From Bacteroidales bacterium (GTDB lineage Bacteria; Bacteroidota; Bacteroidia; Bacteroidales; VadinHA17), in contig JAVEYS010000004.1 of assembly GCA_034003345.1 (NCBI GenBank), positions 1,560-65,559 of the forward strand: a DNA stretch of 64,000 nucleotides, written 5' to 3'. How positions within the stretch are numbered: the stretch's first letter is position 1; each line of letters starts with the position of its first letter. Position numbers and translations under genes: made by a program. Positions 17,167 through 33,801 of the stretch are shown one piece after another. The notes below the pieces were generated by a model that saw only the letters and a program-made list of their open reading frames with translations, had not been told where the DNA came from and made no database searches.

Positions 17167-17212
17167 CCTCGCAGACAGCCCTCAGATCTAACCTCGCAGG
17201 CAGCCCTCAGAG
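17133..17212. repeat. 25-bp tandem repeat, 3.2 copies, spanning the folC stop codon
   Basis: The units are cagatctgatcttgcaggcagccca, cagatatgacctcgcagacagccct and cagatctaacctcgcaggcagccct, then a partial cagag. The folC stop at 17164-17166 lies in unit 2. Confidence 0.85.
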
Positions 17213-17428
17213 TAATGTGCCATAAAGCTAAGTCTGCAACATCACAGCTATGTGCCCTTGCGTCAGAGGCGGACGGCAAAAAAACTTGACTTCACCTGTT
17301 TCAGAGTGTAAATTTGTTAATCATCAATGCAATAACCTGTTGAGAGACTTCAAGAGGAGAGGCCCGGTATTTCTGAAGAATAGTAGGATGTGTTTACGAT
17401 AATCTTAATAACCAGTACCTAAAAACAA

Positions 17429-18097: not shown

Positions 18098-18401
18098 ACA
18101 GTAATTTTAAATGATCACTTTCGTTAATCCCCCGCAGCTTGCTGCGGAAGATGTGGCCGGGGCTTGCTCCGGGGTTAATACCATTTATTAAAAACTTAAT
18201 TCTTTTAGAAGGCTCCGTACAAGGAAATAAACCGGGGGAGGTATTATTATGCAGTAATCTCCGGGTTTGTTGTTGAAGCTTTTTTCCTAACTTAATACCC
18301 GAATATTGATCACATTAAACTCATATGTATTGGAAAAAAACACAATGATAACAAGATCAGTAATATATGGGTTCTGCTATTCGGCTGAAAATAATTTTAT
18401 T

Positions 18402-20207
18402 ATGATGAAAAGACTCGCTCTGTTAATTATGGTTGTTTCGTTTTCTCTCCTTACCCTGGATGCACAGGATGGGAAGAGACTGACTATTCTTCATACAAAC
18501 GACTTCCACTCCCATCTCCAGGGCTTTGCTCCGGAGTCAGCCTATACGCCTGGGGTGGCAGACAATGATCCCACTGTAGGCGGATTCTCCCGTATTGCCG
18601 GAATAATCACCGAAGTAAGAGCAGAGAACCCTGGCAATACATTGGTTGTTGACGGTGGTGACTGCCTGATGGGCACACTCTTCCACGCCCTGGAGCCTGA
18701 GTCGGGTTTCCAGCTCTCGCTGATGAAACAAGCCGGCTATGACGTGGTGGCTATGGGAAACCACGATTTTGACTTTGGCCCGGCTGCATATGCCGGCATT
18801 ATCAGGAAATCAGTCCAGAGGGGAGAGATACCTGTGATACTCATGGGAAATGCCATAACCGACCCGGACGATCCCGGTGATGATGCTTTTGAAGCTGTAA
18901 TGAATGACGGTCTTATTAAACGGTGGTATGTTACTGAGGTAGACGGATTAAAGATAGGCCTGTTCTCACTGCTGGGGAAGGATGCTGACAACTCTGCACC
19001 ATACGCACCGCCGGTGACTTTTGAAAAGATTGTCAGTTCTGGCAAATACCTCGTGAAAGAGTTGCAGCAGCAAGGATGTGATGTGATTATATGTCTGTCA
19101 CACAGTGGTATAGTAAAAGATAAAAAAGGCCGATGGACTGGGGAGGATGTTGAACTGGCAAAAAAGGTTAAAGGAATTAATCTCATTGTCTCCGGCCACA
19201 CACATACTCTGCTTGATCAGCCTCTGATGGTGAACGGTGTGCCGATTGTGCAGGCAGGCAGTGCAGGCATGTTTATGGGCAGGGCTGAACTTGTTGTAAG
19301 AGACAACAGCGTAAAACTTGAGACTTATGAACTCATTAAAGTGGATGATAATATAACTGCTGATAGCCTGATACAGATGGCCATTATTGAACAGGAAAAA
19401 GCTATTGACAGCATTATCCTTAAGCCACTTGGAATGGAATACTCACAACCTGTTGCTGTTACCACGTTTCCACTTGACGTTGATGAATACGGCGATATTG
19501 CAGGAAGCAATATGGGCGCAATGGTGGCTGATGCCATTTACTGTTATTTTAATAATGATGGTCCGGGAGCTGATATTGCATTGGTGGCGGCGGGTGTAAT
19601 AAGAGACCCGTTAATGCCAGGTGCTCAGTGCGTGCCGGATATCTTCAGAGTGATGTCGCTGGGATCCGGCAACGATAAGGTGCCGGGATATTCTCTTTCA
19701 AAAGTATGGGTTACAGGAAGGGAACTGAAAAATATTGCCAGGATTCTGATATTTCTGTCGTCATCAACACCCTCAAACTTCTGCTACTACTCCCATCTTA
19801 ATATCGAGTATGACCCTGATCGTTTGTTCGGCAAAGTGCGTAAAATTGAATTAACTGACCAGGAGGGGAAGGTTACGGAGGTGAATACCTCAAAGAAAGA
19901 CAAAAGGCTATATTCAATTGTTGCAAACTCATATATGCTTGACAATCTCGGGTTAATAAAGAAGAAAACATTTGGCTTGGTGAGCCTTGTACCCAAGGAT
20001 GTAAGTGGTAACCCGATTACTGATATGGATAATGCTGTTTCTGACTTCAACCCGGCCATGCCCGGGATACAGGAAGGGAAGGAGTGGCTGGCACTGGTGA
20101 GATTCATCCGGCAGTTTTCACCGGAGAGTGAGGGAGGTCTGCCGGCAATACCTGAAATGTATCGCGATCCTGCAAGATCACTTGTTCCGGTAAACAGCAG
20201 AAAGTGA
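18402..20207 (+). CDS. secreted bifunctional metallophosphatase / 5'-nucleotidase (UshA-like)
   Basis: Probable start at MMKRLALLIMVVSFSLLTLDAQ; the track ORF starts at a TTG at 18306. It has LTILHTNDFHSHL, GGDCLMG, GNHDFDFG and SGHTH metallophosphatase motifs plus a C-terminal 5'-nucleotidase-like domain. Confidence 0.75.
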   Translation: MMKRLALLIMVVSFSLLTLDAQDGKRLTILHTNDFHSHLQGFAPESAYTPGVADNDPTVGGFSRIAGIITEVRAENPGNTLVVDGGDCLMGTLFHALEPESGFQLSLMKQAGYDVVAMGNHDFDFGPAAYAGIIRKSVQRGEIPVILMGNAITDPDDPGDDAFEAVMNDGLIKRWYVTEVDGLKIGLFSLLGKDADNSAPYAPPVTFEKIVSSGKYLVKELQQQGCDVIICLSHSGIVKDKKGRWTGEDVELAKKVKGINLIVSGHTHTLLDQPLMVNGVPIVQAGSAGMFMGRAELVVRDNSVKLETYELIKVDDNITADSLIQMAIIEQEKAIDSIILKPLGMEYSQPVAVTTFPLDVDEYGDIAGSNMGAMVADAIYCYFNNDGPGADIALVAAGVIRDPLMPGAQCVPDIFRVMSLGSGNDKVPGYSLSKVWVTGRELKNIARILIFLSSSTPSNFCYYSHLNIEYDPDRLFGKVRKIELTDQEGKVTEVNTSKKDKRLYSIVANSYMLDNLGLIKKKTFGLVSLVPKDVSGNPITDMDNAVSDFNPAMPGIQEGKEWLALVRFIRQFSPESEGGLPAIPEMYRDPARSLVPVNSRK

Positions 20208-20396
20208 TCTCAGAACCCGGGGTAGGTACATTTCTTTGTCTGCTTTTATAGCTGGCATACAAGAAAAGTACCGGGAAGGCATTGCTGAGTTCATCAGCGG
20301 CACTGGTGAAATGAATCAGCTGATTGTTACTGGCAGGGTATGGTATTCCCATTATATGTATAAACGTAACCGTAATCTGAAAGGGAGAGAGCTACG

Positions 20397-21146
20397 ATGA
20401 AAATATTTTTAAGGATATTAATACTGTTTGGGACCATTATTCTCCCGGAGGTGGCGTGGACACAGGGCGATTGCAGCAGCTGTACCATCTACAGGGGTTA
20501 CATAAGCAGTGATATGCAGATGTGGAAGAGGGAGATGGCCGGGCTCCGGGAGGCCTGCCGGACGGATCCCGTGGCATGCACCCAGTTTACCCTGACTGAA
20601 GCCATGTATGGTTATATAGGGTTCCTGATCAGCGTTAACGATAAGAATGCAGCAAGACCTCTGGTTGATACCTTTGAGATGGAGATTGAACAGCTTGCTG
20701 CATACAGTGAATACAGGGCTGAGACCGAAGCCTTTCGGCTGGCACTCCTGGGCTATCGTATGGCACTGAATCCGGCAAGATCTGTCACGCTGGGCCCCAA
20801 AGCACTCAGACAACTGGAGAAGGCTATGGAGATAGGTAGCAGCTGCCCCTCCGTATGGATTGAAAAGGCAAACTCGGAATCAAATATGCCCGCCTTCGCC
20901 GGAGGGTCAGAGGAGAAGGCTGCCGCATCATTCCGGGAGGCACTGCGCCTGTTTGAGGAAGATGGAAAAATGTCAGAATGTAACTGGAGATACCTCAACA
21001 CCATTGTGCTCCTGGGCCAGCTCCTGGAAGAGATGGGAGATTATATTGGTGCACGCGATGAATACATGAGGGCGCTCACCAGAGAGCCTGATTTCAGGCG
21101 GGTCAGGAATGAGATGCTACCTCAGGTGGAGAGGAATATTAAATAA
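20397..21146 (+). CDS. hypothetical secreted all-helical (TPR-like) protein
   Basis: 249 aa with a signal peptide. The sequence is helix-rich with a TPR-like tail (GDYIGARDEYMRALTREPDF). I recognise no family. Confidence 0.5.
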   Translation: MKIFLRILILFGTIILPEVAWTQGDCSSCTIYRGYISSDMQMWKREMAGLREACRTDPVACTQFTLTEAMYGYIGFLISVNDKNAARPLVDTFEMEIEQLAAYSEYRAETEAFRLALLGYRMALNPARSVTLGPKALRQLEKAMEIGSSCPSVWIEKANSESNMPAFAGGSEEKAAASFREALRLFEEDGKMSECNWRYLNTIVLLGQLLEEMGDYIGARDEYMRALTREPDFRRVRNEMLPQVERNIK

Positions 21147-21165
21147 CTATCTGATAAAAAGCAGA

Positions 21166-21474
21166 TCATCGGATTGGCCCCAGTTGGGCCGGCGATGTGA
21201 CTGTGCCACAGCGGCAGTAAGGATGAAATACAGGGAGGAGCAGGCTCTGGAAATTCGCCAGCGTATCATTGCCGGTTATCCTGTAGAGCTTACCATGAAA
21301 CCTGAATTCATGATCGGCATCAAAGAGGATACTGTTAAGATGATCAGCTTGAGCATTGACAATCTCTTCACGCTCCTTATACATAAATACTTCAAGGAGT
21401 CGCATCTCCATCTTGTCAACTAGACTGCTCATGTCAATGGTCTTCAGCTCGAGCCGTAAGTCCTGATTATCCAT
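21166..21474 (-). CDS. hypothetical small protein (weak call)
   Basis: A 102-aa ORF convergent with the previous gene, with an AT-rich promoter-like region upstream (21475-21666). No recognisable motif. A competing + strand ORF (21109-21423) overlaps the preceding CDS. Confidence 0.3.
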   Translation of the reverse strand: MDNQDLRLELKTIDMSSLVDKMEMRLLEVFMYKEREEIVNAQADHLNSILFDADHEFRFHGKLYRITGNDTLANFQSLLLPVFHPYCRCGTVTSPAQLGPIR

Positions 21475-21666
21475 TATTTATCGCCGGATATAAGTTTATT
21501 GAGTTACAAAAAGCATCCTTTGAATTATTGTCATCAAAAATTGAAAATAATTAGTGCACCATATAAAGTAGTACATAAAACATATTCATTTCTCATATTA
21601 ACACCTGACTCAATCGCAACACTGTAAAAGAGATACTATTTTTGAGCCATATTAAAAGTTGTAAAC

Positions 21667-22407
21667 ATGAATCTGGAATTACGGGACACATTTATATTAT
21701 TATGGAAGAAATATTTCGGTGACTCGGAGCTGCCGGTAACCTTTTATTATTCATATAGCGATGGAAGTGTTCAATTTGCTGAGAAACCTAAGGGTTGGAG
21801 CTGCATAGTATGTGAGCTGGCAAAGGTCAGGAACGGAATAAGCCTCGTTTATAATGCTGAGAGAATAACCTGCGGCGGCGCCAGGAGATATCTTGGCTAT
21901 TCCGATAAAATGCGCCCGGGATTTGAACACTTTCTTTCATGCGGGAATGGGAAGACAGAGGGAGAGAGATACCTGCGGACACCAGAACTGGTGAGAGAAT
22001 TTATGAAAGCACAGAGAATCCTTCCCGTTTCAGGGATGAATATAGTCTTTAAGAGATGGGACAAGCTGGAGGAAGCAGATGAGCCGGACGTTGTTATCTT
22101 CTTTGCAACACCGGATGTTTTGTCAGGACTCTTCACCCTGGCAAATTTTGATCAGTCAGAGCCTAACGGTACCATTGCACCATTCGGGTCAGGTTGTGCC
22201 TCGATAATACATTTTCCTTTTCTTGAAGGACTGGCTGAAAGGCAGAGAGCTGTCATCGGAATGTTTGATCCCTCAGCGCGGAAGTGTGTCCCCGAAAATG
22301 TGCTCACCTTTGCACTGCCGATGAGGCGGTTTGAAAAGATGATCAGTTATATGGAAGAAAGCTTCCTTATCACAGATACCTGGACTGTTGTAAGAAAACG
22401 GCTCTGA
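21667..22407 (+). CDS. DUF169-like protein (tentative family assignment)
   Basis: 246 aa and cytoplasmic. The size and Cys/Gly blocks (ITCGGARRYLGYSD, FGSGCASIIHFP) are as I recall for DUF169. This was not verified by search. Confidence 0.5.
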   Translation: MNLELRDTFILLWKKYFGDSELPVTFYYSYSDGSVQFAEKPKGWSCIVCELAKVRNGISLVYNAERITCGGARRYLGYSDKMRPGFEHFLSCGNGKTEGERYLRTPELVREFMKAQRILPVSGMNIVFKRWDKLEEADEPDVVIFFATPDVLSGLFTLANFDQSEPNGTIAPFGSGCASIIHFPFLEGLAERQRAVIGMFDPSARKCVPENVLTFALPMRRFEKMISYMEESFLITDTWTVVRKRL

Positions 22408-22625
22408 CCCTCTTTGAGCCTATTCAGCCGCTCAGGCATACGGATTTAACAGTCAGACAATCAATATTATAGCTATGATTGGCATAACGTTGAGTTATAA
22501 CTCATGCCTGTTGATAACATTACCTGTTTGTATCAATATCTTTTGGACCGACTTGTTATTTGATAACTTTCCTCAGATTAAATTCGATCTGTTTTGAACA
22601 AGGTATCTCACATCTTCAAATTCGT

Positions 22626-23819
22626 ATGATAAAGCGATCCTTTATTTCCTTTTTGGTTCCGGCAATCCTTTTGACCGGATTATCCGGGACAGTGAACTCG
22701 CAGGGCTGGTCATTTACCACAACCTACACACAATCAGGCTGGTGCATTCCGCCAGTTTCCTCGCCGTACAACGGGATGACCTTTGCCACAAAGGATGCAT
22801 GTGACGTTGCGAGGCAGTCGGTTCTCAGTGATAACACCGACTGGTCTGTCCTTGGTGACGGCAGTTGTGTTACAGTCATTACATGTACATCATGTATGGG
22901 TTCTGATATAGGAGGTACCGCGGGTTCTTCCAGTATGGGCGGCACGGGTGTAGTCTCTCTGGAAGGCCTCCTGACCGGGAATGCATTCTTTTCTCCCCAT
23001 TCAAGCAAAGAGGTCGAGAATTGGATCTACGACTACCTTCTAATGATGAATTCAAGGGGCATACCTGTTGACGGAGTTACTCTTATCACTCCTGGCGATG
23101 TACCCAGGACAGGTAATGCTGATTTTGATAAATTTTATACCGAACAAATGTTACGGTTTGAAAAACCGGAATATGGAAGCACGGTATATCTGAATAATGA
23201 CATAAAGGGTGTGGTCGATCCGGCTGACCTTAAAGGTAATGCCAAGCCAGAACCCGGTCCTGTAGCTTTTAAAGAACCTTTGAGCCCTGAGAAACAATAT
23301 GGATTGAAATATGCAGATAAAGCCGCTCTCTTCACTGAGTCGGAAGATGGAGTCATTGACGGTAATACTGATTTTGCCCCATACATTGATTTCGCCCGGT
23401 CTGCCGCAGTATTCGGAGTGGGATTTCTTAAAAAAGGGGCAATACCTGCTATTGTGATTGTAGATATAGTAGCGGAGGATATCAAGTTAGGAACGCAACT
23501 GGTTCAAAATGCATTTATGGGTGAGAACGAACCTATCCCGGGAACGGGTGAGATAATAGTCAATTACTTAACGAACATAACGACTGATGCTGCAGGTGCG
23601 TATATCGGAGACAAAGCCGGCAATGCAGTAAAAGCACTAACTGCCAGCCATGTAGAAGGAGTGCTGGTAAGCAATGGAGTACTGCCTGGCATTGCCAAAA
23701 TCTCCGACAGGGCCAAAAATATATCCGCAGCAGCAGGCACAGAGTTTGGAGTACTGACCGGGGGCGCAGACCTCATTGGAGAATGGGGCAAAATGCAGCA
23801 GAAAATAGGTAAACACTGA
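22626..23819 (+). CDS. hypothetical secreted protein, gene 1 of a 5-gene operon
   Basis: Starts MIKRSFISFLVPAILLTGLSGTVNSQ (signal peptide). A Cys-rich N-domain carries 6 Cys within ~55 aa. The C-terminal third is Gly/Ala-rich and hydrophobic (AAVFGVGFLKKGAIPAIVIVDIV, AAGAYIGDKAGNAVKAL, GVLTGGADLIGEWG). Confidence 0.7.
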   Translation: MIKRSFISFLVPAILLTGLSGTVNSQGWSFTTTYTQSGWCIPPVSSPYNGMTFATKDACDVARQSVLSDNTDWSVLGDGSCVTVITCTSCMGSDIGGTAGSSSMGGTGVVSLEGLLTGNAFFSPHSSKEVENWIYDYLLMMNSRGIPVDGVTLITPGDVPRTGNADFDKFYTEQMLRFEKPEYGSTVYLNNDIKGVVDPADLKGNAKPEPGPVAFKEPLSPEKQYGLKYADKAALFTESEDGVIDGNTDFAPYIDFARSAAVFGVGFLKKGAIPAIVIVDIVAEDIKLGTQLVQNAFMGENEPIPGTGEIIVNYLTNITTDAAGAYIGDKAGNAVKALTASHVEGVLVSNGVLPGIAKISDRAKNISAAAGTEFGVLTGGADLIGEWGKMQQKIGKH

Positions 23820-23838
23820 AAGTGAAGTAGAGACGAGT

Positions 23839-25164
23839 ATGAAAAAGATTATTCTGCTTACAGTTTTGTGCTTCTCAGCACAACTCTTTCAACCTCTGAG
23901 TGGCCAGAAACAGCTTCCGGTTAACGATTCTCTGGGTTTTGAAGTTCTTCTGACGGACGGGATGTCCGGCAAAATAGGTTTAAAGGGTAGTTTCATCAAT
24001 TCACTTGAGATTACTCCTGAACGACTCATCTTGCTTTCAACCGGTGACCAGTATTACCTTCTGGGTTGGGGAGGAATCATACCACATGGTAGGAAAATTT
24101 CCGGAAAAATCAACTCATTTGCCCTCACAGGTGATGGGTTACTGCTTACCATAGTGGAGAATAAACTTTGTTATTTTGACTCTATGGGCAATCTGGCTGT
24201 CATGTATACACTTCCTGCAACAGGAATGACTATATCTGCCGGTAAAGATGTGATGTACCTGTTTGACAGTAACCTTGAACATAAAACGCATCCACTGTAT
24301 GTGCTTGCCCGCGGAGGGAAATATCTTAAGCTCATTGAAACTCCAGCTCCGATAACCTCTGTCGTTGAGACCGATAACTATGTTCTTTTTGCTTCAGGGG
24401 CAAATATCTATAGTATTAATGTCGAAAAGAAGGATGTCAAACTGCTTTATACCGATGAAGAGGGTAAGGAGATAAAGTCTTTGGCCTATGACAGTAGCGG
24501 CAAGTCGGTATATTTTTCCACAGCTTCATCTGTTTCTGCTATCAGGGGCTCAGACATTATTGTCATAAGTGAGAATACCGGAGGGATACTTAAATATTAC
24601 AACGGTCTCATCGTATTTAATCCGGGTATCAAGATGATGCTAAGAATAGTTGGCCTTGACGGGACACTGCCTGTGAAACCTTATGCAGAGTCCCGGGCGG
24701 CACCCCGGCCGGAGCCCCAGGAAGTCTCGAAAACGGAGCTCCCGACGGCACCCCGGACAGAGCCCGCTCAGGCAACTTCCCGGAATGAGCTCCCGGCGGC
24801 ACCCCGGCCGGAGCCCGCCCAGGCAGCTTCTCTGAATGAGCTCCCGACGGCACCCCGGACGGAGCCCGCCCAGGCAACTTCCCGGAATGAGCTCCCGGCA
24901 GCACCCCGGACAGAGGTTATTTTTCAGTCAGGCAAGCAAGATATCGAAGCCGTCACGGTACTAACTAACGCTACCGTGGCTGACCTGGTCAGAAACAATC
25001 TCTCTGATTATTTGATAAAGGACATTATCAGACGGTCGAGGGTAGAATTCATTCTTACATCTGACGCAGTAATTGAACTGTCAGGTAAAGGTGTTTCATC
25101 GGAAGTAATTCTTGAAATGAGAGAAGCAATGAAGAGACAGTCAGCTGACCGCCAGATAAAATAA
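23839..25164 (+). CDS. hypothetical secreted protein, gene 2: propeller-like repeats, Pro-rich repeats and a C-terminal 53-aa module
   Basis: 441 aa with signal peptide MKKIILLTVLCFSAQLFQPLSGQ. Recurrent beta-blade-like segments occur (YYLLGWGG, LCYFDSMGN, MYLFDS, VLFASGANIYSI, VYFSTASS). It has about 4.3 copies of a 17-aa repeat (ELPTAPRTEPAQATSRN). A 19-bp gap separates it from gene 1. Confidence 0.75.
   Translation: MKKIILLTVLCFSAQLFQPLSGQKQLPVNDSLGFEVLLTDGMSGKIGLKGSFINSLEITPERLILLSTGDQYYLLGWGGIIPHGRKISGKINSFALTGDGLLLTIVENKLCYFDSMGNLAVMYTLPATGMTISAGKDVMYLFDSNLEHKTHPLYVLARGGKYLKLIETPAPITSVVETDNYVLFASGANIYSINVEKKDVKLLYTDEEGKEIKSLAYDSSGKSVYFSTASSVSAIRGSDIIVISENTGGILKYYNGLIVFNPGIKMMLRIVGLDGTLPVKPYAESRAAPRPEPQEVSKTELPTAPRTEPAQATSRNELPAAPRPEPAQAASLNELPTAPRTEPAQATSRNELPAAPRTEVIFQSGKQDIEAVTVLTNATVADLVRNNLSDYLIKDIIRRSRVEFILTSDAVIELSGKGVSSEVILEMREAMKRQSADRQIK
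24697..24915. repeat. 51-bp tandem repeat, ~4.3 copies, GC-rich, inside gene 2
   Basis: The unit gagctcccg(a/g)cggcaccccgg(a/c)c(a/g/c)gagcccgc(t/c)caggca(a/g)cttc(c/t)c(g/t)gaat encodes ELP(T/A)APR(T/P)EPAQA(T/A)S(R/L)N. Confidence 0.9.
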
Positions 25165-25182
25165 TTTGAAATCCATAAGCAT

Positions 25183-26442
25183 ATGAGAAAATATATTTCA
25201 CTGATTATTATAGGGTTGTCCCTGATTGTCGGAGTCAGGGCTCAGACCCCGGAGACACTCACCAATAGCTCAGTGGTGAAAATGTCTAATGCGAACCTTT
25301 CAGATGAGCTGATCATTGATATGATCCGGGATTCGCCGGTCAGATTCAGTCTGGAGGATGCTGATCAAAGATCACTGAAAAATGAAGGGGTTTCTGAAAA
25401 TGTTATTAATGCGATGCTAAGTAGGGGCGAGGGTGAGAATCCGCCTGCAGTCAGCAACGCGGTGCCCTATGTTGTACCGGATGAAACCGCCTCAGTTACC
25501 CGTTCTGAAGCAGCCTCAGTTACCCGTCCTGAATCGGCAAATAAGCCCGTGACTGAATATATGCCTGCGGAAGTGGTTGATAATGTGCCCGTTGTGGCCC
25601 TAAACTATATTATCCCACTGACAGATTTAATTACATTTAATGATAAGGAATTCAGGAGCTTTGAAGCGACCCTTGTTGAATGGGATAAAAAAATACGGAC
25701 GCTCACCTCGGATGTAAACCGGGTCAAGGATCAGATGTTGCAGACAGAGAATGAGCTCAGGAAAATAAAGAATACCGGTACAGGTACATTCAGTTCAGAG
25801 ATTCTTGCACTTCAGAAGAAACTTGATGTCTACCGGAAGAACTACAGCGATTCAAAGGTCATATTGGTGTCCGGAGGAAAGAGTATGTTTAAGTGGCTGG
25901 ATTCTGAAATGGGAAACAGGGTCAGGGATCTTGGTAAGGAATACAGCTCGACAGTCCAGAGTATAATGTCTGCGGATATTAATCCGGCTACAGGCGAGCA
26001 GCCTGCTACGATGCAATTTGCCGTCAGGGAGGTTAGTGAAACCACTTCCGGATATATCGTTTATGCAACAGAATTGCTTAACTGGTATCAGAATGAGATG
26101 AAAGAGATGAATAATCTGATACAAGACTGGAACCCGCGTGTAAGCAGTGTTGTTTCCGGGGATGCCGGGCTCAAGGCTCAGCTTGACCCGCTGGAAGCCA
26201 AGCTTGAAGAACTTAAGGCAAACTCAAAGCAGAATAAGAACGAAATATCTGGCTTGAAGAAGCAGATTTCAGATCTTGAAAAAGCAAGGAAAGAGATGGC
26301 AGGCACGATGAAGGATGATGCCAAAGAACTAGCTTCGATATTGAAACAGAAAAGCCAGAATAACAAGGAATCGTTGAACCAAAGATTTGCAGATATCCTT
26401 GAGAATATCACATATTCATTTGAAGAGAAACTCAGTCTTTAA
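25183..26442 (+). CDS. hypothetical secreted coiled-coil protein, gene 3: N-terminal 53-aa module shared with gene 2
   Basis: 419 aa with signal peptide MRKYISLIIIGLSLIVGVRAQ. An ASVTR(S/P)E duplication is followed by about 300 aa of heptad-rich, K/E/Q-rich sequence. An 18-bp gap separates it from gene 2. Confidence 0.75.
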   Translation: MRKYISLIIIGLSLIVGVRAQTPETLTNSSVVKMSNANLSDELIIDMIRDSPVRFSLEDADQRSLKNEGVSENVINAMLSRGEGENPPAVSNAVPYVVPDETASVTRSEAASVTRPESANKPVTEYMPAEVVDNVPVVALNYIIPLTDLITFNDKEFRSFEATLVEWDKKIRTLTSDVNRVKDQMLQTENELRKIKNTGTGTFSSEILALQKKLDVYRKNYSDSKVILVSGGKSMFKWLDSEMGNRVRDLGKEYSSTVQSIMSADINPATGEQPATMQFAVREVSETTSGYIVYATELLNWYQNEMKEMNNLIQDWNPRVSSVVSGDAGLKAQLDPLEAKLEELKANSKQNKNEISGLKKQISDLEKARKEMAGTMKDDAKELASILKQKSQNNKESLNQRFADILENITYSFEEKLSL

Positions 26443-26448
26443 TATCCT

Positions 26449-27714
26449 ATGAAAGGAATTATGACAACAAGAACAGGTCTGAGAGAACGCATGAAATTGA
26501 CAGTATCGATGCTAAGTCTGATATTGCTCCTTCTTCCTGCCGGCGTGACAGGACACACCGGCTTTCCTGAGAAAGAGTTGCAGACCGGAGAGGAAGTGTG
26601 TCAGACTGTTTCAGGGTCTCCATCTACGGATGCGGCCAGAACCTTCCTGATCTCTGAGGATTTTAACCGTGCCGTCTCTGAATATGCACTCCTGCTAAAA
26701 AAAGACCCGACAGATGCAGTGGTTAACTCTGAATACGCCTACGCCCTGGCACTCAATGGCATTTATGATGCGGCTCTCGCCCGCCTCGACAAGGTCTGGA
26801 ATAATAATTCCAATAACCGTGAGGTAAATTATTTTACTTCACAGGTTTTTGCCCTTATGGGATATGATGCCCTGGCTACTGAATTCAGAAATCGCATAGC
26901 TGAAAAGGAAACTCCTGTCTGGATTTCATCAGCCGCCCCGTTGCTGCTCGAAAAATACAGTGACAGAAGCCCGGGAAATGACCTTTCGGGGGGCGTTGAC
27001 ATAGTGACCTTCTTCCGGAGGGCAAACAGGCTCACGGCTCAGGATTACAACCTGATGGCTATCGCTTCTTTTGAAGCTATCGTGACTGAGTACCCGGGAG
27101 AGTACCTTCCTTATCTGGGTTACAGCATTGCCCTTGAGAAGGCTGGCATCTACAGCAAATCAATACAGGCACTTGAACAGGCAATGACACTTGTTCGCGA
27201 TAAACCGGAACAGACCGAGGCTCAAAAAATGATTGAACAGCGGCTGGTGCAGGTACGAAGTAATGCCAAGGTACCTGTGAAGAGCGTAACCACTGATCCG
27301 ACCAATCTCAAACCAGCGGCTGGTGGAAAAAGAATGCTTGCTTATGCCGGAGGAATGTTTTCGAGTTCCTATATCAGCATCAATGGCAGGTTCGGGACTT
27401 TCATTTCTGACAGCGGGAGTCTTTCGGCTGACATTGGATTGGCAAAGAGCGGTGAGAGCACTTCCCTAAATCTGGGGATAATGAACTTCTACCGGCGGAA
27501 AGTTTTTGTGGCCGGATATGGTCTTAATGCTGGTCTTGGCAGTCAGGGATTGACATTATATTTTAAGATCTCAGTAGGACTGAGCTTTATGAATAAGGCC
27601 AGGAGTTCGAGCTGGGATATCTTTCTCGACGGCCAGCAGCCTATAGCTCCTTCAGGCTCAACCACAACGATGGGAATGTCTGTAGGCCGCAGTATTTATT
27701 TCGGAACCAGATGA
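26449..27714 (+). CDS. hypothetical secreted TPR-like protein with a beta-barrel-like C-terminus, gene 4
   Basis: 421 aa. Alternative starts are at 26461 and 26491. The signal peptide is MKLTVSMLSLILLLLPAGVTG. TPR-like helices are present (AVSEYALLLKKDPTDAVVNSEYAYALALNG, YLPYLGYSIALEKAG). The last ~128 aa show about 8 alternating-hydrophobic strands. Confidence 0.7.
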   Translation: MKGIMTTRTGLRERMKLTVSMLSLILLLLPAGVTGHTGFPEKELQTGEEVCQTVSGSPSTDAARTFLISEDFNRAVSEYALLLKKDPTDAVVNSEYAYALALNGIYDAALARLDKVWNNNSNNREVNYFTSQVFALMGYDALATEFRNRIAEKETPVWISSAAPLLLEKYSDRSPGNDLSGGVDIVTFFRRANRLTAQDYNLMAIASFEAIVTEYPGEYLPYLGYSIALEKAGIYSKSIQALEQAMTLVRDKPEQTEAQKMIEQRLVQVRSNAKVPVKSVTTDPTNLKPAAGGKRMLAYAGGMFSSSYISINGRFGTFISDSGSLSADIGLAKSGESTSLNLGIMNFYRRKVFVAGYGLNAGLGSQGLTLYFKISVGLSFMNKARSSSWDIFLDGQQPIAPSGSTTTMGMSVGRSIYFGTR

Positions 27715-27722
27715 TTTAAGAG

Positions 27723-28535
27723 ATGAAGAGGTTATTTATAGTAACGATAATTGCACTTTCAGTGATACAATCATGCTTCGGACAGAGCCTGATGGAAAAA
27801 CTCGTGCAATTCAGAACGGACATGATGCCGAAATACGGAACCTACTTTACCTCAGCCGATCTGGATGACGGAGACAGGTTGATACTGAAAGCAGGGATAC
27901 CCTACAGCAACCTGGCAGATGATGATAAACAGAGTATAATGGAAGTATTGCTAAGATCATGGCAGGAGCCCCTGGTAATTGTCATTTGTGAAACCCGCAG
28001 AGAGCTTTGGGGGTGGGACAGCCAGGTACGCAGCGCATCTCTCATTGATCTGTGGGACCTGAATCCTGAGCCTGTGGCCGTTGAAACCAGTACTGAACCC
28101 TCTGCAGTAGCCAGGCATCCTTGGTTCTTCTATGTTGGAAGTGCACAGCAGATCGACTCAGATAAGAATATTAACGCTGCCCTCAGTGGCAGAGTGGGGG
28201 TTTTCCTGCTTCGTAACAAATGGGATATGGCACTGACACTGTCGGAAGCAGTAGCCGGCAACTTAGAAAGTGAGGACCTCTCAATTACTACAAGCGCTGG
28301 AGTGATGAGCAAAATTTACTTCCCGATAAGGAAGTATAACATAGGCCCAAATGCCGGAGCAGAAGTAGCAGTGACCATTCCCAGTGGGGGAAAAGCAACA
28401 TTTACACCATCATTTCTTGTAGGATTGAGCTGGTATGTCGGAATCGGAAGCATGGATGTGGGACTTCGGGTAGGAAGCAATACCATGATGATGCTCGGCT
28501 ATACAGTAATTCCGAATTTTAAATTCAAAAAATAA
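27723..28535 (+). CDS. hypothetical secreted protein (possibly a lipoprotein) with a beta-barrel-like C-terminus, gene 5
   Basis: 270 aa with signal MKRLFIVTIIALSVIQSCFGQ. An N-terminal domain of about 110 aa is followed by about 140 aa of alternating-hydrophobic strands. An 8-bp gap separates it from gene 4. Confidence 0.7.
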   Translation: MKRLFIVTIIALSVIQSCFGQSLMEKLVQFRTDMMPKYGTYFTSADLDDGDRLILKAGIPYSNLADDDKQSIMEVLLRSWQEPLVIVICETRRELWGWDSQVRSASLIDLWDLNPEPVAVETSTEPSAVARHPWFFYVGSAQQIDSDKNINAALSGRVGVFLLRNKWDMALTLSEAVAGNLESEDLSITTSAGVMSKIYFPIRKYNIGPNAGAEVAVTIPSGGKATFTPSFLVGLSWYVGIGSMDVGLRVGSNTMMMLGYTVIPNFKFKK

Positions 28536-28586
28536 AATTGACTTCTTAAATGGGGTAGCGTAAATATGAACTTAAACTCAGATTAA

Positions 28587-28815
28587 TACGCAATAAAAAT
28601 CCCGGAACCAAAAAATATTCCTCTGAGTGGGAGGTTCTTTTCCAGGGTTTATGAAGGCCCATTCAAATACACAGAGATGTGGTGAAAGGATTTTTTCACA
28701 TGTTGCTGCCGAGCGGGGTATGAAGATTGGAAATGGTATGTGGTATAATACATGCCCCGGGTGCGCTAAAAAATACTGAAGAAATTATAACGTCATAGTT
28801 TGTAAAATAGGATGA
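28587..28815 (+). pseudogene. decayed 3' remnant of a small gene (family not named)
   Basis: Segment 1 reads IKIPEPKNIPLSGRFFSRVYEGPFKYTEMW and ends in TGA. After a +1 shift the reading continues RIFSHVAAERGMKIGNGMWYNTCPGCAKKY-TGA-RNYNVIVCKIG. The internal TGA at 28777 sits where relatives I recall have Gly (CPxCAKKYGKNY). No N-terminal part is present. Confidence 0.4.
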
Positions 28816-29076
28816 AAAACTTCAGGCGGGTTATCCTGATCTACATTTCCTGAAATTCCGATCTTCCCCGGTCAACATCCGGAGATATTCAGGCTGCATC
28901 GTGTATTGTATAAATATGCCTGACAGGCTGCTAAACAAACTACTATCAGTGTTCGTAGCCAATAAGCATTATGCTGTTGCCAGGAAAATGTGCCGATCGT
29001 TTAAATGTTTCTATTTCGGTTATTAGTCAATTTATTCACACAATAAGGCATAGAAAATCAGATAAATGATGTGCAA

Positions 29077-29134
29077 ACTAAGAAAATAGTCAAAAAATTT
29101 GTAAAAATAGTTGCATGACTAAGAAAGTAGTCAT
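29077..29134 (+). promoter_or_regulatory. two copies of a putative BlaI-family operator, the second overlapping a TAnnTTTG -7 box
   Basis: ACTAAGAAAATAGTCA lies at 29077-29092 and ACTAAGAAAGTAGTCA at 29118-29133. Each is an ACTA-N6-TAGT inverted repeat. The second extends to a 20-bp palindrome, ATGACTAAGAAAGTAGTCAT. TATATTTG at 29134-29141 lies 25 bp upstream of the blaI-like ATG. Confidence 0.5.
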
Positions 29135-29165
29135 ATATTTGCAATGGAGGATTGACAATATAAAG

Positions 29166-29552
29166 ATGAAAACAATGCAACTGACAAGAGCAGAAGAGCA
29201 GATAATGCAGATCCTGTGGGATTTGGAAGAAGGTCTGGTAAAGGATGTCAGGGATCAGTTTGCTGACCCTAAGCCGGCAAGGAATACTGTTTCAACAGTA
29301 GTCAGGATTCTGGAAAAGAAAGGTTTTGTGGATCATAAGTCTTATGGTAACGTCCATCTTTATTATCCGGTCGTTACCAAGGATGAGTATTCGCGGAGCC
29401 AGCTCTTTGGCCTTCTTGAAGGTTATTTTGACAACTCTTTTCCGACCATGGCATCATTCTTCGCACGTGAGAAGGATCTCACAGTGGCTGATCTGGAGGA
29501 GTTGCTTACTGAGACCATGGAGGAATTATCGGCAAGAAAAAGCAAGAAATGA
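29166..29552 (+). CDS. BlaI/MecI/CopY-family transcriptional repressor
   Basis: Starts MKTMQLTRAEEQIMQILW. A winged-helix region (ARNTVSTVVRILEKKGFV) is present, and the size (~128 aa) is typical. The stop overlaps the next gene's ATG as ATGA. Confidence 0.85.
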   Translation: MKTMQLTRAEEQIMQILWDLEEGLVKDVRDQFADPKPARNTVSTVVRILEKKGFVDHKSYGNVHLYYPVVTKDEYSRSQLFGLLEGYFDNSFPTMASFFAREKDLTVADLEELLTETMEELSARKSKK

Positions 29553-31336
29553 TGGAAGCAATAGGGCTTTATCTGGTTAAGTCAGCGGTCTGGACAACCG
29601 GTTTCGGGCTGGTGTATTTACTCTTCCTCAGGAATGAGAGATTTTTTCTTATGAACAGAATTTATCTGGTGGCAGGAATTCTGGCATCACTTATTCTGCC
29701 GTTGATATCGGTTAAATATTATGTTGATTTACCTGCCATACAGGCCGGTGTAACTGCCGGGACTTTGCGTGCGGGGATTGCAGGAGCCGGTTACGGCCAT
29801 GGCAAAATAATTTTTGCACTTTATGGCTTATGGCTTGCCGGGGTACTGTTTATGATAACCAGGTATATTGTACAGGTGGTTCCTGTACTGAAGGTAGCCA
29901 GAGATGCCAGGCCGGAACCGGGGTGTCCGGTACGGATTATACGGTCTGCTGAGTTTCCAAACTCATTTTCATTGTTCTCCTTTGTTGTTGTCAATCCTTC
30001 CGTTTCTGAGACTGAAGCAAAGGAGATATTGAATCATGAGATGGTGCATATTAGACAGATACACTGGCTTGATCTGATGCTTTCAGGTATTCTTTGTGCC
30101 GTTCAGTGGTTTAATCCTGCTGCCTGGGTCTATGCCCGGCTGGTTAGGCAGAACCACGAGTACCTGGCTGATGAGGAGGCGCTGCAGCGCACATCCGACC
30201 CGGCCGTCTACAGGGCTGCGCTGCTCAACCAGATTGCCGGCTCACCGCTGATTGATCTGGGTAATTTTTTCAGTTTCTCACTAAACAAAAAACGATTTAA
30301 CATGATGAAAAATAAAATAAGTTCACCTTACAGAAAGCTCAGGCTGCTGATCATCCTGCCCGTTGCCGCAATTGTGCTATATGCTTTTGCGGAACCGCAA
30401 TACAGGGTTAATGCTGCCGGAGATAACGCGGATGCGACCGTTGTGGCGCCATCGGCTAATAAGACAGTAATGGGTGTGGTCATGAGCGAGGATGGCAATC
30501 AGCTTGAGGGAGCCGTTATAGTGGTAAAGGGAACCACTGTTGGAACTGTCACAGACAAGCAGGGGCATTTTGCTCTTAAAGAAGTGCCCGACGATGCTAC
30601 ATTGATTGTCTCCTACGTCGGATATGAAACAGTGTCTGTCAGTGTGTCGGGAAAAGCTAAGATAAACATCACCATGAAGACGAAGAGTGTGATGATGGAA
30701 AAGGTTCAGGTAACACAGGATGCGCCGCCGCCGCCACCACCGCCATCCTCGGACATGCCATCACCACCACCTCCTCCACCTACTGCGAAGTCAATGAAGG
30801 ACGTCCTTATTGTGATTGACGGAGTGATAAGCGACAAAGATGTATCGGATATCTCTTCTGATGAGATTCAATCAATAAATGTTCTGAAAGATGAGTCTGC
30901 GGTGAAAGCCTACGGGCCCGAAGGCAAGAACGGCGTGATAGAGATCACTACAAAAAAAGCCACGGGCCCAAAGTCTGACGACGAGGTGGAAATCAGGACC
31001 ACCGGTAGAAACGAGACAGAAAAGGATGTCTTTGTGGTTGTGGAGAATATGCCTTTGTTTCCGGGTGGAGAGGAAGCCATGAAAGCCTGGATAGCAGACA
31101 ATGTGAAGTATCCTTCCGGTGCCGTAGACAATAAGATATCAGGTATTGTTTTGGTTCGGTTTATCGTCGGCGCTGATGGTAAGGTGTCAAATGTGAAGAT
31201 TACGAGATCAGCTCATCCCCTGCTCGATGCTGAAGCAGTAAGAGTTATAAAAAGCATGCCCGACTGGAAGCCGGGAACACAGCGGGGTAAACCTGTTGCT
31301 GTCAGTTATGTCGTGCCCGTTGAGTTCAGCCTTTAG
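29549..31336 (+). CDS. BlaR1-type M56 peptidase sensor fused to CarboxypepD_reg-like, plug-like and TonB C-terminal domains
   Basis: 595 aa. TM helices are followed by HEMVHIRQIHWLD (HExxH) and EYLADE. Next come a carboxypeptidase-regulatory-like fold (VMGVVMSEDGNQLEGAVIVVKGT, YVGYETVSV) and a Pro run (PPPPPPPSSDMPSPPPPPP). An INVLKDESAVKAYGPEGKNGVIEITTKK block precedes the TonB_C domain (MPLFPGGEEAMKAWI, KPGTQRGKPVAV). Confidence 0.85.
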   Translation: MMEAIGLYLVKSAVWTTGFGLVYLLFLRNERFFLMNRIYLVAGILASLILPLISVKYYVDLPAIQAGVTAGTLRAGIAGAGYGHGKIIFALYGLWLAGVLFMITRYIVQVVPVLKVARDARPEPGCPVRIIRSAEFPNSFSLFSFVVVNPSVSETEAKEILNHEMVHIRQIHWLDLMLSGILCAVQWFNPAAWVYARLVRQNHEYLADEEALQRTSDPAVYRAALLNQIAGSPLIDLGNFFSFSLNKKRFNMMKNKISSPYRKLRLLIILPVAAIVLYAFAEPQYRVNAAGDNADATVVAPSANKTVMGVVMSEDGNQLEGAVIVVKGTTVGTVTDKQGHFALKEVPDDATLIVSYVGYETVSVSVSGKAKINITMKTKSVMMEKVQVTQDAPPPPPPPSSDMPSPPPPPPTAKSMKDVLIVIDGVISDKDVSDISSDEIQSINVLKDESAVKAYGPEGKNGVIEITTKKATGPKSDDEVEIRTTGRNETEKDVFVVVENMPLFPGGEEAMKAWIADNVKYPSGAVDNKISGIVLVRFIVGADGKVSNVKITRSAHPLLDAEAVRVIKSMPDWKPGTQRGKPVAVSYVVPVEFSL

Positions 31337-31473
31337 GCTCTCAAGGAAGAAGTAACAGTACGCTGACCTGCATGATCTAAAGTACGGAGAAGGAGGCTAT
31401 GTCACAAGGTGAGTTCTCTCCCGTAGCAGTGAAAATGTAAAAGTACTTCATAGAGGGGACGAATTGTATCAAC

Positions 31474-31516
31474 AAAAAAGAGGTTGTCTCAGAATTACAT
31501 AGGGCAACCTCTTTTT
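31474..31516. terminator. bidirectional rho-independent terminator between convergent genes
   Basis: The sequence is aaaaaa-gaggttgtc, a loop, then ggcaacctc-ttttt. An A-run and a T-run flank a 7-10 bp stem. Confidence 0.6.
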
Positions 31517-31607
31517 ATTATCCTCGTCAAGCCATCATCACATCATATACTGCTGACCTTAAATATTTATAACAGAGTAATAGGGTCCCGAAGGCCGGCC
31601 TTTCCTG

Positions 31608-32462
31608 TTACTCTTTTGCATGATGAATGACAGTCTGCGGGAACGGGATCTCAATACCCTCCCTGTCAAAAGCTATCTTCAGCCTCTTGCGCAGTTCACC
31701 GGCAACCTCCCATTGTTTTAGCGGCTTTGTGTCGCCCAGTATCTTGACAACAATGGCTGAATCAGCAAATTCATTGACCCTGAGGAACTGTGGCGGCGAA
31801 ATGATGGAGTCCTTGAATGCAGGGTCATCAGCAAGCTCCATGCCAACCTTATTGATAACCTCAATAAGATGTTCAAGGTTTGTGTTGTAGCTGACACCTA
31901 AATCGATGTTCACCCTGGCGAAATCTTTTGACAGGTTGGAGACCTTGGTTATAGAGCCGTGAGGAATATGATGCACGGTGCCGTCCAGATTACGCAGGGT
32001 TGTCTTTCTGAGGCTTATATCCTGTACAGCGCCACTGAGTCCTTCGATATCCACAACATCACCTATGCGATACTGGTTTTCCAACATAAGGAAAAGCCCT
32101 GTGATGATATCTCTTATGAGGTATTGTCCGCCAAAACCAACAGCCAGACCTACTATACCGGCCCCTGCAATCAGCGGTCCTACTTCAATGCCTACTTCAC
32201 CCAGGATCATCATTAATGCAATTACGAAAATCACCATATTCAGAGCACCGGAGAAGATCCTTATGAGGGTATCTTCTCTTTTCTTTTCCGCCTCCGGTGT
32301 AGTGTTCTCATCTGATTTTACCGATATCCTTATCGCTCTTGCGATGATTCTCTGAAGAATTCTGTCGAGCAAAAATGAGATAATTACAATCAGTAAAATC
32401 CTAATTCCATGTGACAACAGCCAGGGAATTATCTGTTCGGACCATTTGCCTATTGTTTCCAT
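31608..32462 (-). CDS. MscS-family mechanosensitive ion channel
   Basis: 284 aa with three TM helices followed by the MscS beta-domain (YRIGDVVDIEGLSGAVQDISLRKTTLRNLDGTVHHIPHGSI). Confidence 0.85.
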   Translation of the reverse strand: METIGKWSEQIIPWLLSHGIRILLIVIISFLLDRILQRIIARAIRISVKSDENTTPEAEKKREDTLIRIFSGALNMVIFVIALMMILGEVGIEVGPLIAGAGIVGLAVGFGGQYLIRDIITGLFLMLENQYRIGDVVDIEGLSGAVQDISLRKTTLRNLDGTVHHIPHGSITKVSNLSKDFARVNIDLGVSYNTNLEHLIEVINKVGMELADDPAFKDSIISPPQFLRVNEFADSAIVVKILGDTKPLKQWEVAGELRKRLKIAFDREGIEIPFPQTVIHHAKE

Positions 32463-32694
32463 TATTATTGTGTTTATGTTGTGCTTGATATCAATTTTTC
32501 ATTCTCTCCGGGGGATCGTGCGCAATTTAATAATTCATAAGGGGCTGCCAAAACAGGAACACAAAAATCATTTAGCATGCTTTAAAACATGATATGAGCA
32601 TCATGAAAGCTTTTTATGGCCTGGCTGTGCACGAGGAACATTAAAAACGCTATTTTTGATAAGCTCAAAAAAAATTCAGATAAACAGAGAGATT

Positions 32695-33801
32695 ATGATC
32701 CTCTTAAACAGCGAAGTCGGGAATTATATTATCAGTAACGGGAAAAAGTATTCCTACTTTGCAGGAAACAATTACCTGGGTCTGGCCGCTCACCCTGATA
32801 TAAAGGCGGCAGTCATCAGGGCTGTGGAAAAGTACGGTGTCAACTTTGCGGCGTCGAGGCATACAACAGGGACGGCCGACCTGCATCTCGAGCTCGAAAG
32901 TGCACTGGCATCTTTCAAAGGAAAGGAGAATGCAGTTGTGTTTGCATCTGGCTATCAGGGGAACAGCATCCTTCTGGAGATACTCAAGGGCAGCTATTCA
33001 ATCGTCTTCATTGACCAGTCGGCTCATGCAAGCATAATAGCAGCCATTCCGGCCGATGTTGTCAAGGTTATGTATTATGATCACTGTGATCCGGATCATC
33101 TTGATTACCTGCTAGACTACAACAGGGGCTCCAATCCGCTGGTAGTGACTGACGGGATATTTGCCCTGTCAGGTGAGATAGCTCCTCTGGACAGAATCTA
33201 TCCGGTTGTAAAGAAACACAACGGGCTGCTTGTGGTGGATGATGCTCATTCCACGGGTGTTCTGGGAGCCACGGGAAAAGGAACTCCTGAACATTTCAAC
33301 CTTCCGGATGATGAAAAGATCTACCAGACCGAGACGATGAGCAAGGCCCTTGGAGGATATGGCGGTTTCATCTCCGGCAGCAATAGTATTACGACGTTGA
33401 TACGCAAACGCTCAGCCACATACCAGGCCTCAACAGCCCTTCCTCCTCCGATAGCAGCAGCGGGTATAGCCTCTGTGTCGATCATTCAGAACAATCCCGC
33501 CCTGCGTACAGAATTGCTCGACAAGGCATGGAGGCTGAGGGAGGAGGTAGTGGCATTGGGCTTTGAAACCAGCCATTACCGGACACCCATAATACCAATT
33601 ATCTTTGATGCTCCGGAAAAGGCAAGTGGTCTCTCCCAGTTCCTTGAGGATAACGGGGTGATAGCACCCTGCATGAACTATCCTGTCAGAAAGGAGATGC
33701 ATCAGATAAGAATAGCTGTATCTGTTATTCATACAGAACAGCAGATCAGTCAGTTACTAGAGTTGTTAAAAAAATGGAAAGATAATCATGGAAGCAATTA
33801 A
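32695..33801 (+). CDS. alpha-oxoamine synthase family PLP enzyme (BioF/Kbl/Spt-like; substrate unknown)
   Basis: About 368 aa from the ATG at 32695; the track ORF starts at TTG 32656. It has YFAGNNYLGL, DDAHSTGVLG and the PLP-lysine block TMSKALGGYGGF. Confidence 0.75.
   Translation: MILLNSEVGNYIISNGKKYSYFAGNNYLGLAAHPDIKAAVIRAVEKYGVNFAASRHTTGTADLHLELESALASFKGKENAVVFASGYQGNSILLEILKGSYSIVFIDQSAHASIIAAIPADVVKVMYYDHCDPDHLDYLLDYNRGSNPLVVTDGIFALSGEIAPLDRIYPVVKKHNGLLVVDDAHSTGVLGATGKGTPEHFNLPDDEKIYQTETMSKALGGYGGFISGSNSITTLIRKRSATYQASTALPPPIAAAGIASVSIIQNNPALRTELLDKAWRLREEVVALGFETSHYRTPIIPIIFDAPEKASGLSQFLEDNGVIAPCMNYPVRKEMHQIRIAVSVIHTEQQISQLLELLKKWKDNHGSN

Follow-up and report, generated by a model that had tools for sequence, protein, structure and literature searches.

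What do five adjacent genes do when all of their products seem to leave the cytoplasm and none belongs to a recognisable family? This question is raised by a locus within a 64,000-nt stretch of DNA from a Bacteroidales bacterium of the VadinHA17 lineage (NCBI GenBank assembly GCA_034003345.1, contig JAVEYS010000004.1, positions 1,560 to 65,559), hereafter the window, whose own numbering is used throughout. An open reading frame (ORF) scan located five + strand ORFs, g1 to g5, spanning positions 22626-28535 and separated by intergenic gaps of 19, 18, 6 and 8 bp, in agreement with a preliminary description made from the sequence. We tentatively read these genes, with a confidence somewhat short of even, as a Sec-dependent polymorphic effector system that carries a cognate immunity-like partner and its own outer-membrane partners. 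The preliminary description had proposed a new cell-envelope system, and this interpretation is partly supported: the genes appear to form a novel and conserved envelope-associated system, which is better read as a polymorphic effector-delivery cassette. The parts of the cassette look new, its logic familiar. The ORF scan gave the following genes:

22626-23819, + strand: g1, 397 aa
23839-25164, + strand: g2, 441 aa
25183-26442, + strand: g3, 419 aa
26449-27714, + strand: g4, 421 aa
27723-28535, + strand: g5, 270 aa

The evidence that carries this reading comes from the comparison of g1 and g2 with their relatives. Homologue alignments divide g1 into three parts, and the comparison of relatives delimits a polymorphic block that runs from g1 into g2; the coordinates of the block in the window were carried over from homologous codons (g1 ~200 to g2 ~372).

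g1 aa 1-25, + strand: signal peptide
g1 aa 26-200 (22701-23225), + strand: conserved Cys-rich N-domain
g1 aa ~221-397 (23286-23816), + strand: polymorphic, probably helical C-domain
23223-24954, + strand: polymorphic block, made up of the g1 C-domain, the g1-g2 spacer and the g2 signal peptide, propeller and linker

The g1 C-domain exists in discrete types, at least four of them in the close clade, and the N-half of the protein (aa 26-200) is conserved. Across 12 close loci, the g2 propeller was 75% identical within a g1 C-domain type and 43% identical between types; for g4, the corresponding values in the same 12 loci were 75% and 73%. Label permutation in the close clade yielded p values of 1.5e-4 for the g2 propeller and 3e-4 for the g2 module, and p >0.1 for the g1 N-domain, g3, g4 and g5, where the differences were 0.02-0.03. 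The genes g3, g4 and g5 tracked each other (Spearman 0.76-0.79, all 27 loci). In one pair of loci, L023 and L045, DNA identity was 0.90-0.97 upstream of the cassette, over most of the g1 N-half, throughout g3-g5 and downstream, and it fell to 0.31-0.55 across one contiguous stretch of ~1.6 kb with sharp edges at about g1 codon 200 and g2 codon 330. The same co-variation of g1 C-domain and propeller was found in a second clade (L027 and L052 vs L032). When L031 was compared with L046, the g1 C-domains were 79% identical and the g4 proteins 46%; across lineages the block can be more conserved than its backbone, which points to lateral exchange of the block. As far as these alignments go, they show that the g1 C-domain and the g2 propeller swap as one DNA unit between backbones that are ~90% identical.

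A second variable patch was observed inside the g1 N-domain (22737-22835, aa ~38-70), where the DNA of L023 and L045 is 0.63-0.70 identical, with values >0.9 around it. The patch corresponds to two alternative first Cys loops, SGPGPCIPY vs T-GSCIPY.

The cassette also occurs in forms that differ in gene content. A g1 profile collected 254 clusters at 50% identity, many of them with proteins of 480-694 aa that match the N-domain only. Among these relatives, P0300, P0357 and P0312 match Lipase_3, and P0300 and P0333 match Mbeg1-like, in each case above the Pfam gathering score; all four proteins have intact GHSLGG or GHSEGG motifs and carry the source annotation 'Phospholipase-like'. The contigs of the N-domain relatives were searched with hidden Markov models (HMMs) built from the cassette-family alignments. 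Lipase-type g1 genes are directly followed by g4, and then by g5 where the contig continues (L055, L056, L059, L063); neither g2 nor g3 was detected by HMM in these four cassettes. Non-lipase g1 genes have a propeller gene after them in every case. In a four-gene form (L058), g1, a propeller-only g2, g4 and g5 are found on a conjugative transposon with RteC and TraQ. In a pair-only form (the Prolixibacteraceae-type loci L034, L040, L044 and L047), a protein whose sole match is to the g1 C-domain adjoins a propeller-only g2; the g1 N-domain, g4 and g5 are absent from these loci and a different long TPR protein is present. Because of these partner sets, the g1 N-domain can be assigned to g4 and g5, and the g1 C-domain to the propeller. 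The gene neighbourhoods compared show that g4 and g5 accompany the g1 N-domain whatever its C-terminus, phospholipase included, and that the g2 propeller accompanies the helical g1 C-domain only.

Other genes were noted around these relatives. TraQ_transposon and RteC adjoin the four-gene cassette at L058:1-1078, and a pair formed by a HigB toxin and an HTH antitoxin follows the cassette at L060:11654-12317. Mobile-element databases held no g4 relatives in plasmid records and no g1 relatives in phage records. Of the three lipase-type cassettes whose contigs extend downstream, two are followed by a DUF5106 protein (L056:5304-6182 and L063:6694-7527); its C-half is thioredoxin-like, with matches to Thioredoxin_8 and AhpC-TSA that are both below cut-off. 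This protein might form disulfide bonds in the Cys-rich N-domain of g1; alternatively, its gene might be the immunity gene that these cassettes seem to lack. Directly upstream of g1, a BACON-domain protein is encoded in three divergent cassettes (L057:15-614, L060:3999-5546 and L063:399-2777) and none is encoded in the window.

With regard to distribution, homologue searches returned 59 clusters for g2, at least 184 for g4 and 38 for g1, whose members are unnamed or called 'TPR repeat protein'. A pattern-based locus scan, with one genome per species, gave 44 loci, all of them in metagenome-assembled genomes (MAGs) and nearly all labelled Bacteroidales or its families, such as Rikenellaceae, Lentimicrobiaceae and Prolixibacteraceae. 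The order g1-g2-g3-g4-g5 was intact in ~33 of the 44 loci, with unrelated flanking genes. Since the order is kept in ~33 loci despite unrelated flanks, the five genes can be considered a genuine functional unit; the preliminary description had predicted a single unit, and its co-occurrence in other genomes has now been found.

All five N-termini contain 2-5 Lys/Arg followed by a 10-aa hydrophobic core (Kyte-Doolittle hydropathy, KD, 2.7-3.2), and in the families of g1, g3 and g5 the residue right behind this core is a Gln with few exceptions or none. Bacteroidota signal peptidase I sites typically have a Gln in this position. As had been described earlier, each of the five products looks Sec-exported. 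When g1-g5 were scanned against Pfam, NCBIfam and PADLOC, the result was TPR in g4, coiled-coil noise in g3 and nothing else, and PDB-sequence profile searches with the g1, g2, g4 and g5 families gave generic TPR (g4) at most. The earlier statement that the proteins belong to no recognisable family or known system is consistent with these results, given that library, profile and fold searches produced nothing specific beyond the generic TPR of g4. Full-text literature searches found no description of the cassette, and a 2025 review of Bacteroidales antagonism mentions nothing resembling it. Two candidate assignments were rejected. A DUF4941 match in g1 was weak (E 0.008) and present in only 1 of 34 family members. 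The possibility that the products are cargo of type IX secretion (T9SS) was discarded because none of g1-g5 carries the corresponding C-terminal domain (CTD): CTD, Por_Secre_tail and CHU_C were all absent by Pfam and NCBIfam.

In g1, the N-half contains five Cys and the C-half none; the C-half has a Gly+Ala content of 26% and a hydrophobic segment (KD 1.82) at residues 261-279. These values fit the Cys-rich domain and Gly/Ala-rich hydrophobic tail proposed in the preliminary description. The cleavage site AQ|GW is conserved and lacks a lipobox Cys, which indicates that g1 is not a lipoprotein. The C-domain of the window's g1 matches no family in Pfam, NCBIfam or PDB-sequence searches. Judged by its sequence, g1 is a putative two-domain effector exported by Sec.

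The second gene is the proposed partner of the g1 C-domain. Its domains, and those of g3, were placed as follows:

g2 aa 33-271 (23935-24651), + strand: six-bladed β-propeller (AlphaFold2 model, Foldseek)
g2 aa 279-372 (24673-24954), + strand: disordered Pro-rich linker (AlphaFold2 model)
24736-24915, + strand: 51-bp (17-aa) Pro-rich tandem repeat in the g2 linker, 3.5 copies (Tandem Repeats Finder)
g2 aa 373-441 (24955-25161), + strand: four-helix module (AlphaFold2 model, alignment)
g3 aa 21-93 (25243-25461), + strand: N-terminal copy of the helical module (hhalign)
g3 aa ~140-419 (25600-26439), + strand: long coiled-coil-like region, preceded by the signal peptide and a linker (weak coiled-coil-type matches)

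AlphaFold2, run on a 40-sequence alignment, modelled residues 33-271 of g2 as 24 β-strands with a predicted local distance difference test (pLDDT) score >90. Foldseek matched this model with probability 1.00 to six-bladed propellers, including the designed protein Pizza6 (TMt 0.73); other matches were the propellers of Bacteroides hybrid two-component sensors, lactonases and Kelch domains. The N-domain of g2 is thus, according to the model, a β-propeller that forms a closed ring of four-stranded blades. The propeller is generic: neither sequence nor fold searches assigned it to a specific family or gave a functional clue. Linker length is highly variable across the family. It also varies within one population, because a contig of the same metagenome population (L004:1346-2572) has a g2 allele that differs from the window's only by the loss of 33 aa from the Pro-rich repeat.

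The C-terminus of g2 and residues ~21-93 of g3 have in common a helical module of ~60 aa (hhalign probability 98.7%, E 2e-16). An HMM of this module matched each cassette exactly twice, at the end of g2 and at the start of g3, and had no other match in the window or in any fetched locus. Outside the module, g3 gave only weak coiled-coil-type matches in Pfam, NCBIfam and PADLOC. The propeller-like blades and 17-aa repeat linker of g2, the module that g2 shares with g3 and the coiled coil of g3 had all been anticipated in the preliminary description. In three different loci (L019, L057 and L060), g2 and g3 are fused: the coiled coil follows the propeller directly, and neither module is present. 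Such Rosetta-stone fusions argue that the modules normally hold g2 and g3 together, and the fused proteins show that both the C-terminal module of g2 and the N-terminal module of g3 appear to be dispensable once the two genes are joined.

Two further features of these proteins were noted. A second tandem repeat in g3 (25482-25533; 24 bp, 2.2 copies, 89% match) encodes a motif of ~8 aa containing ASVTR, located in the linker that joins the module to the coiled coil. In two g2 relatives, P0039 and P0051, the helical module is followed by an additional SPOR (peptidoglycan-binding) domain at the C-terminus, which hints that the g2-g3 unit may lie near the cell wall.

The last two genes are the candidate outer-membrane partners of the g1 N-domain, with the following domains:

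g4 aa ~60-265 (26626-27243), + strand: TPR region, after the signal peptide (TPR_19 match)
g4 aa ~295-421 (27331-27711), + strand: C-terminal amphipathic β domain (period-2 hydrophobic pattern)
g5 aa 21-110 (27783-28052), + strand: small N-domain, after the signal peptide (family alignment)
g5 aa ~130-265 (28110-28517), + strand: C-terminal amphipathic β domain (period-2 hydrophobic pattern)

The TPR_19 match of g4 scored 33.6 bits, against a Pfam cut-off of 25, and PDB profile matches were to TPR only. In the last ~130-140 aa of both g4 and g5, 6-8 segments show alternating (period-2) hydrophobicity. The preliminary description had proposed TPR repeats in g4 and similar β segments at the ends of g4 and g5; the TPR repeats and the β segments were recovered, whereas the similarity was not, as profile comparison of the two β domains detected no homology. 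The comparison of g5 with the OMP_b-brl protein of the window by hhalign was weak (E 1.3e-3, probability only 18%), and g4 did not match that protein. Among g5 relatives, 2 of 33 gave single weak matches to OMP_b-brl and PorP_SprF. On the basis of their sequence patterns, g4 and g5 are putative outer-membrane proteins.

The mechanism that we propose for the cassette would start with the passage of all five products across the inner membrane via Sec. In the periplasm, the g2 propeller would bind its cognate g1 C-domain and keep the payload harmless or soluble, acting as an immunity-like partner, as a chaperone, or as both. Pairing of the modules would tether g2 to the g3 coiled coil, and the variable Pro-rich linker would give it reach. 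In the outer membrane, g4 and g5 would bind g1 by its N-domain and either expose it on the cell surface or set it free there. Its C-terminal payload would then act on the membranes of competitors, being an amphipathic and partly hydrophobic helical domain in this cassette and a phospholipase in relatives, and the polymorphism of the block would result from diversifying selection on the payload-partner pair. A bolder version of this proposal holds that g4 and g5 constitute a new dedicated outer-membrane export route of Bacteroidota, in effect a new type of secretion system, with the Cys-rich g1 N-domain as its handle, interchangeable payloads (helical membrane-active domains, phospholipases and others) and a propeller, tethered by the coiled coil, as both allele-specific immunity protein and holding chaperone, and that the cassettes are a new family of interbacterial weapons among uncultured anaerobic Bacteroidales; we regard this version as rather unlikely, although we give the new export route a real chance.

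Several results weigh against an effector system. The g1 C-domain lacks a recognisable toxin fold: the AlphaFold2 model of g1 was unusable (pLDDT 44) and Foldseek found no match for it at E<1. All g1 C-domain types have equal length and a conserved C-terminal Trp-Gly, so to judge by their sequences they may be one fast-evolving domain and not swapped toxin families. Propellers of different types are still ~40% identical, unlike typical unrelated immunity families, and no obvious immunity gene lies between g1 and g4 in the lipase-type cassettes. The β domains of g4 and g5 fall below the threshold of every outer-membrane protein (OMP) family, and the carriers are all uncultured MAGs. A global rank-based partial Mantel test of the g1 C-domain against the g2 N-domain over 27 loci gave r -0.05 and p 0.71; propeller identity saturates at ~40-45% between distant lineages, and the signal is clear only among close relatives, with the backbone held constant. 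The co-variation of the two domains could, moreover, be partly due to physical linkage within one recombination tract. We favour functional coupling over mere linkage because the co-occurrence patterns across cassette forms are independent of it.

How do other explanations fare with the same data? The cassette could be a surface-display or exoprotein system without antagonism, in which g1 is exported via g4 and g5 and serves as an adhesin or membrane-active factor here and as a nutritional lipase in relatives, g2 and g3 are the periplasmic chaperone and tether of an aggregation-prone helical domain, and recognition of the exposed domain by phages or predators drives the polymorphism. Such a system would produce the same modular co-occurrence as an effector system; it would account for lipase cassettes that have neither a g2-like partner nor an evident immunity gene, for the surface-type BACON-domain proteins upstream of g1 in L057, L060 and L063, and for the ~40% identity between propeller types, as expected of a chaperone that keeps one fold. 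We nevertheless consider it rather unlikely. Exchange of the payload together with the next downstream partner as a block is the classic effector/immunity signature, one version of the cassette is on a conjugative transposon, and phage drive alone leaves the co-switching of the partner unexplained unless binding is highly allele-specific.

The preliminary description itself had favoured a housekeeping scaffold that spans the periplasm or is attached to the outer membrane, comparable to Tol-Pal, Bam or Lpt accessory modules. The components that it listed (propeller, coiled coil, TPR and β domains) were borne out, the products all look exported, some g2 relatives end in a peptidoglycan-binding SPOR domain, and members of the window's clade have the cassette at a syntenic chromosomal site among housekeeping genes. 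A 1.6-kb hypervariable block exchanged between ~90% identical backbones is, however, unexpected in a core envelope machine. Forms without g2 and g3 that carry a phospholipase payload, and a version riding on a conjugative transposon, likewise argue against this explanation. The species-representative scan gave just 44 loci, all from MAGs, and no domain that defines Tol-Pal, Bam or Lpt was found by Pfam or NCBIfam; a scaffold of this kind is therefore improbable to us. Self or kin recognition, with the g1 C-domain and the g2 propeller as an allele-specific identity pair and not as toxin and antidote, would agree with the discrete allele types, with the co-switching of two adjacent putative binding partners and with a C-domain in which no toxin fold is recognisable. 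We judge it quite improbable: g2 has no surface-anchoring feature and appears periplasmic, sister cassettes in which a lipase replaces the variable domain and a partner is lacking fit an identity code poorly, and Pfam and NCBIfam revealed no sequence relation to Ids or Tra proteins.

Compared with known systems, the effector reading is closest in logic to contact-dependent inhibition (CDI) by two-partner secretion (CdiB-CdiA-CdiI, type Vb). As in CDI, a conserved N-terminal handle is paired with a dedicated, here putative, outer-membrane partner, and cassettes are replaced by recombination with breakpoints inside the effector gene; a polymorphic C-terminus that co-varies with the next downstream gene (the g1 C-domain with the g2 N-domain) is a likeness in logic only. 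The components differ. No two-partner secretion (TPS) domain or FHA repeats were found in g1 by Pfam and NCBIfam (E<=1; 34 family members), g1 is only ~400 aa long and the gene order is different. Two small β proteins, of which one contains TPR, stand in place of a single TpsB; their β regions span ~130-140 aa and gave no match to POTRA, ShlB or an Omp85-type 16-strand barrel. The CDI immunity protein is small and cytoplasmic, whereas the partner here is a tethered propeller of ~270 aa with a signal peptide.

A second point of comparison is the class of Sec-dependent polymorphic toxins with lineage-specific N-domains, such as MAFB-N, the Microscilla N-domain and APD1/APD2 of Amoebophilus, described by Zhang et al. 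2012 (PMC3482391), who proposed that the N-domain mediates surface anchoring and listed the class without signature neighbour genes. g1 resembles these proteins in its layout, in which the signal peptide precedes an N-domain that is conserved and lineage-specific and then a variable, putative effector domain, and its conserved N-region and C-domains that differ between strains by cassette replacement are what those authors look for. Unlike that class, the g1 N-domain is always accompanied by g4 and g5, and g1 is below every Pfam and NCBIfam cut-off. As to their toxin criterion, the C-domain of the window's g1 matches no family, and a GxSxG lipase is recognisable in sister cassettes only.

Slam proteins (type XI secretion) recall g4 in that a TPR region is followed by a C-terminal β domain and the gene is near that of the presumed substrate. 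The Slam barrel, however, is a 14-strand DUF560 domain, whereas g4 has a β region of ~130 aa that matched no barrel family and an insignificant TPR_Slam match (E 0.28); in addition, Slam substrates are lipoproteins and g1 has no Cys at its cleavage site. The Tle/Tli pairs of type VI secretion (T6SS) have in common with sister cassettes a GxSxG lipase payload and, in idea, a periplasmic signal-peptide partner that neutralises a membrane-targeting effector. They differ in that no T6SS genes or PAAR, VgrG or Hcp domains were detected here, that export is Sec-dependent, that the window's payload is not a lipase and that lipase-type cassettes do not have g2. The Tol-Pal system with CpoB also combines a periplasmic β-propeller, a coiled-coil/TPR protein and an outer-membrane-associated partner; in contrast to it, the cassette is polymorphic, modular and sometimes mobile, and no TolQ, TolR, TolA, TolB_N, PD40 or OmpA-like Pal was found by Pfam in g1-g5 or in the neighbouring genes (15799-22407 and 29115-34861).

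In Bacteroidota, export across the outer membrane is mainly attributed to T9SS, and antagonism between neighbours to T6SS, Bacteroidales secreted antimicrobial proteins (BSAPs) and bacteroidetocins. If the effector reading is true, the cassette would be a compact Sec-dependent delivery system of three to five genes in which the logic of CDI has been rebuilt from unrelated parts. It would provide a new N-terminal export handle, two candidate outer-membrane components and a natural series of matched and mismatched payload-propeller alleles for the study of specificity. The g1 N-domain would then also be a marker for new effector domains, because many proteins that contain it have long unannotated C-termini. 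Even without a toxin, the cassette would be a new conserved envelope module with three predicted interacting pairs, namely the g1 C-domain with the g2 N-domain, the g2 C-terminus with the g3 N-terminus, and the g1 N-domain with g4/g5.

The boundaries of the unit are marked by two features:

22408-22625, + strand: presumed promoter region, 218 bp of non-coding DNA in the gap between a DUF169 gene and g1
28620-28634, + strand: terminator-like hairpin with a T-rich tail to 28644 (consensus scan, pattern match only)

The ATG of g1 at 22626 is the start in public gene calls for metagenome contigs of identical sequence and is consistent with the N-termini of homologues; the ORF list holds an alternative upstream start, a TTG at 22560. 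Upstream of g1, the only Bacteroidota-type TAnnTTT (-7-like) motifs are imperfect and lie at 22537 and 22564. The terminator-like hairpin is located 85 bp 3′ of the g5 stop codon, and it is the sole feature seen in the ~580 bp of 28536-29114, where there is no called gene and no Rfam match. The preliminary description had given 218 bp and ~630 bp of non-coding DNA on the two sides of the operon, and both figures hold: g5 is separated from the BlaI gene by 579 bp if that gene begins at its called start, 29115, and by ~630 bp if it begins at the next ATG.

Downstream of the cassette, 29115-31336 encodes a BlaI-type repressor and a BlaR1 (M56) protein fused to CarboxypepD_reg and TonB_C. Across the window's clade this pair stays close to the cassette, at times with intervening genes. 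Two genes upstream of the cassette, a signal-peptide TPR protein of 249 aa is encoded (20397-21146); close-clade loci have it in the syntenic place (58-69% identity), and distant cassette loci lack it. Elsewhere in the window, T9SS-linked genes comprise that of a 1943-aa SprB/Calx-beta/HYR adhesin with a CHU_C sorting domain (38577-44408) and, directly after it, a PorP/SprF gene (44548-45540). A Peptidase_C25 (gingipain-family) protein is encoded on the - strand at 2579-6022, and a tRNA gene lies on the - strand at 38154-38228.

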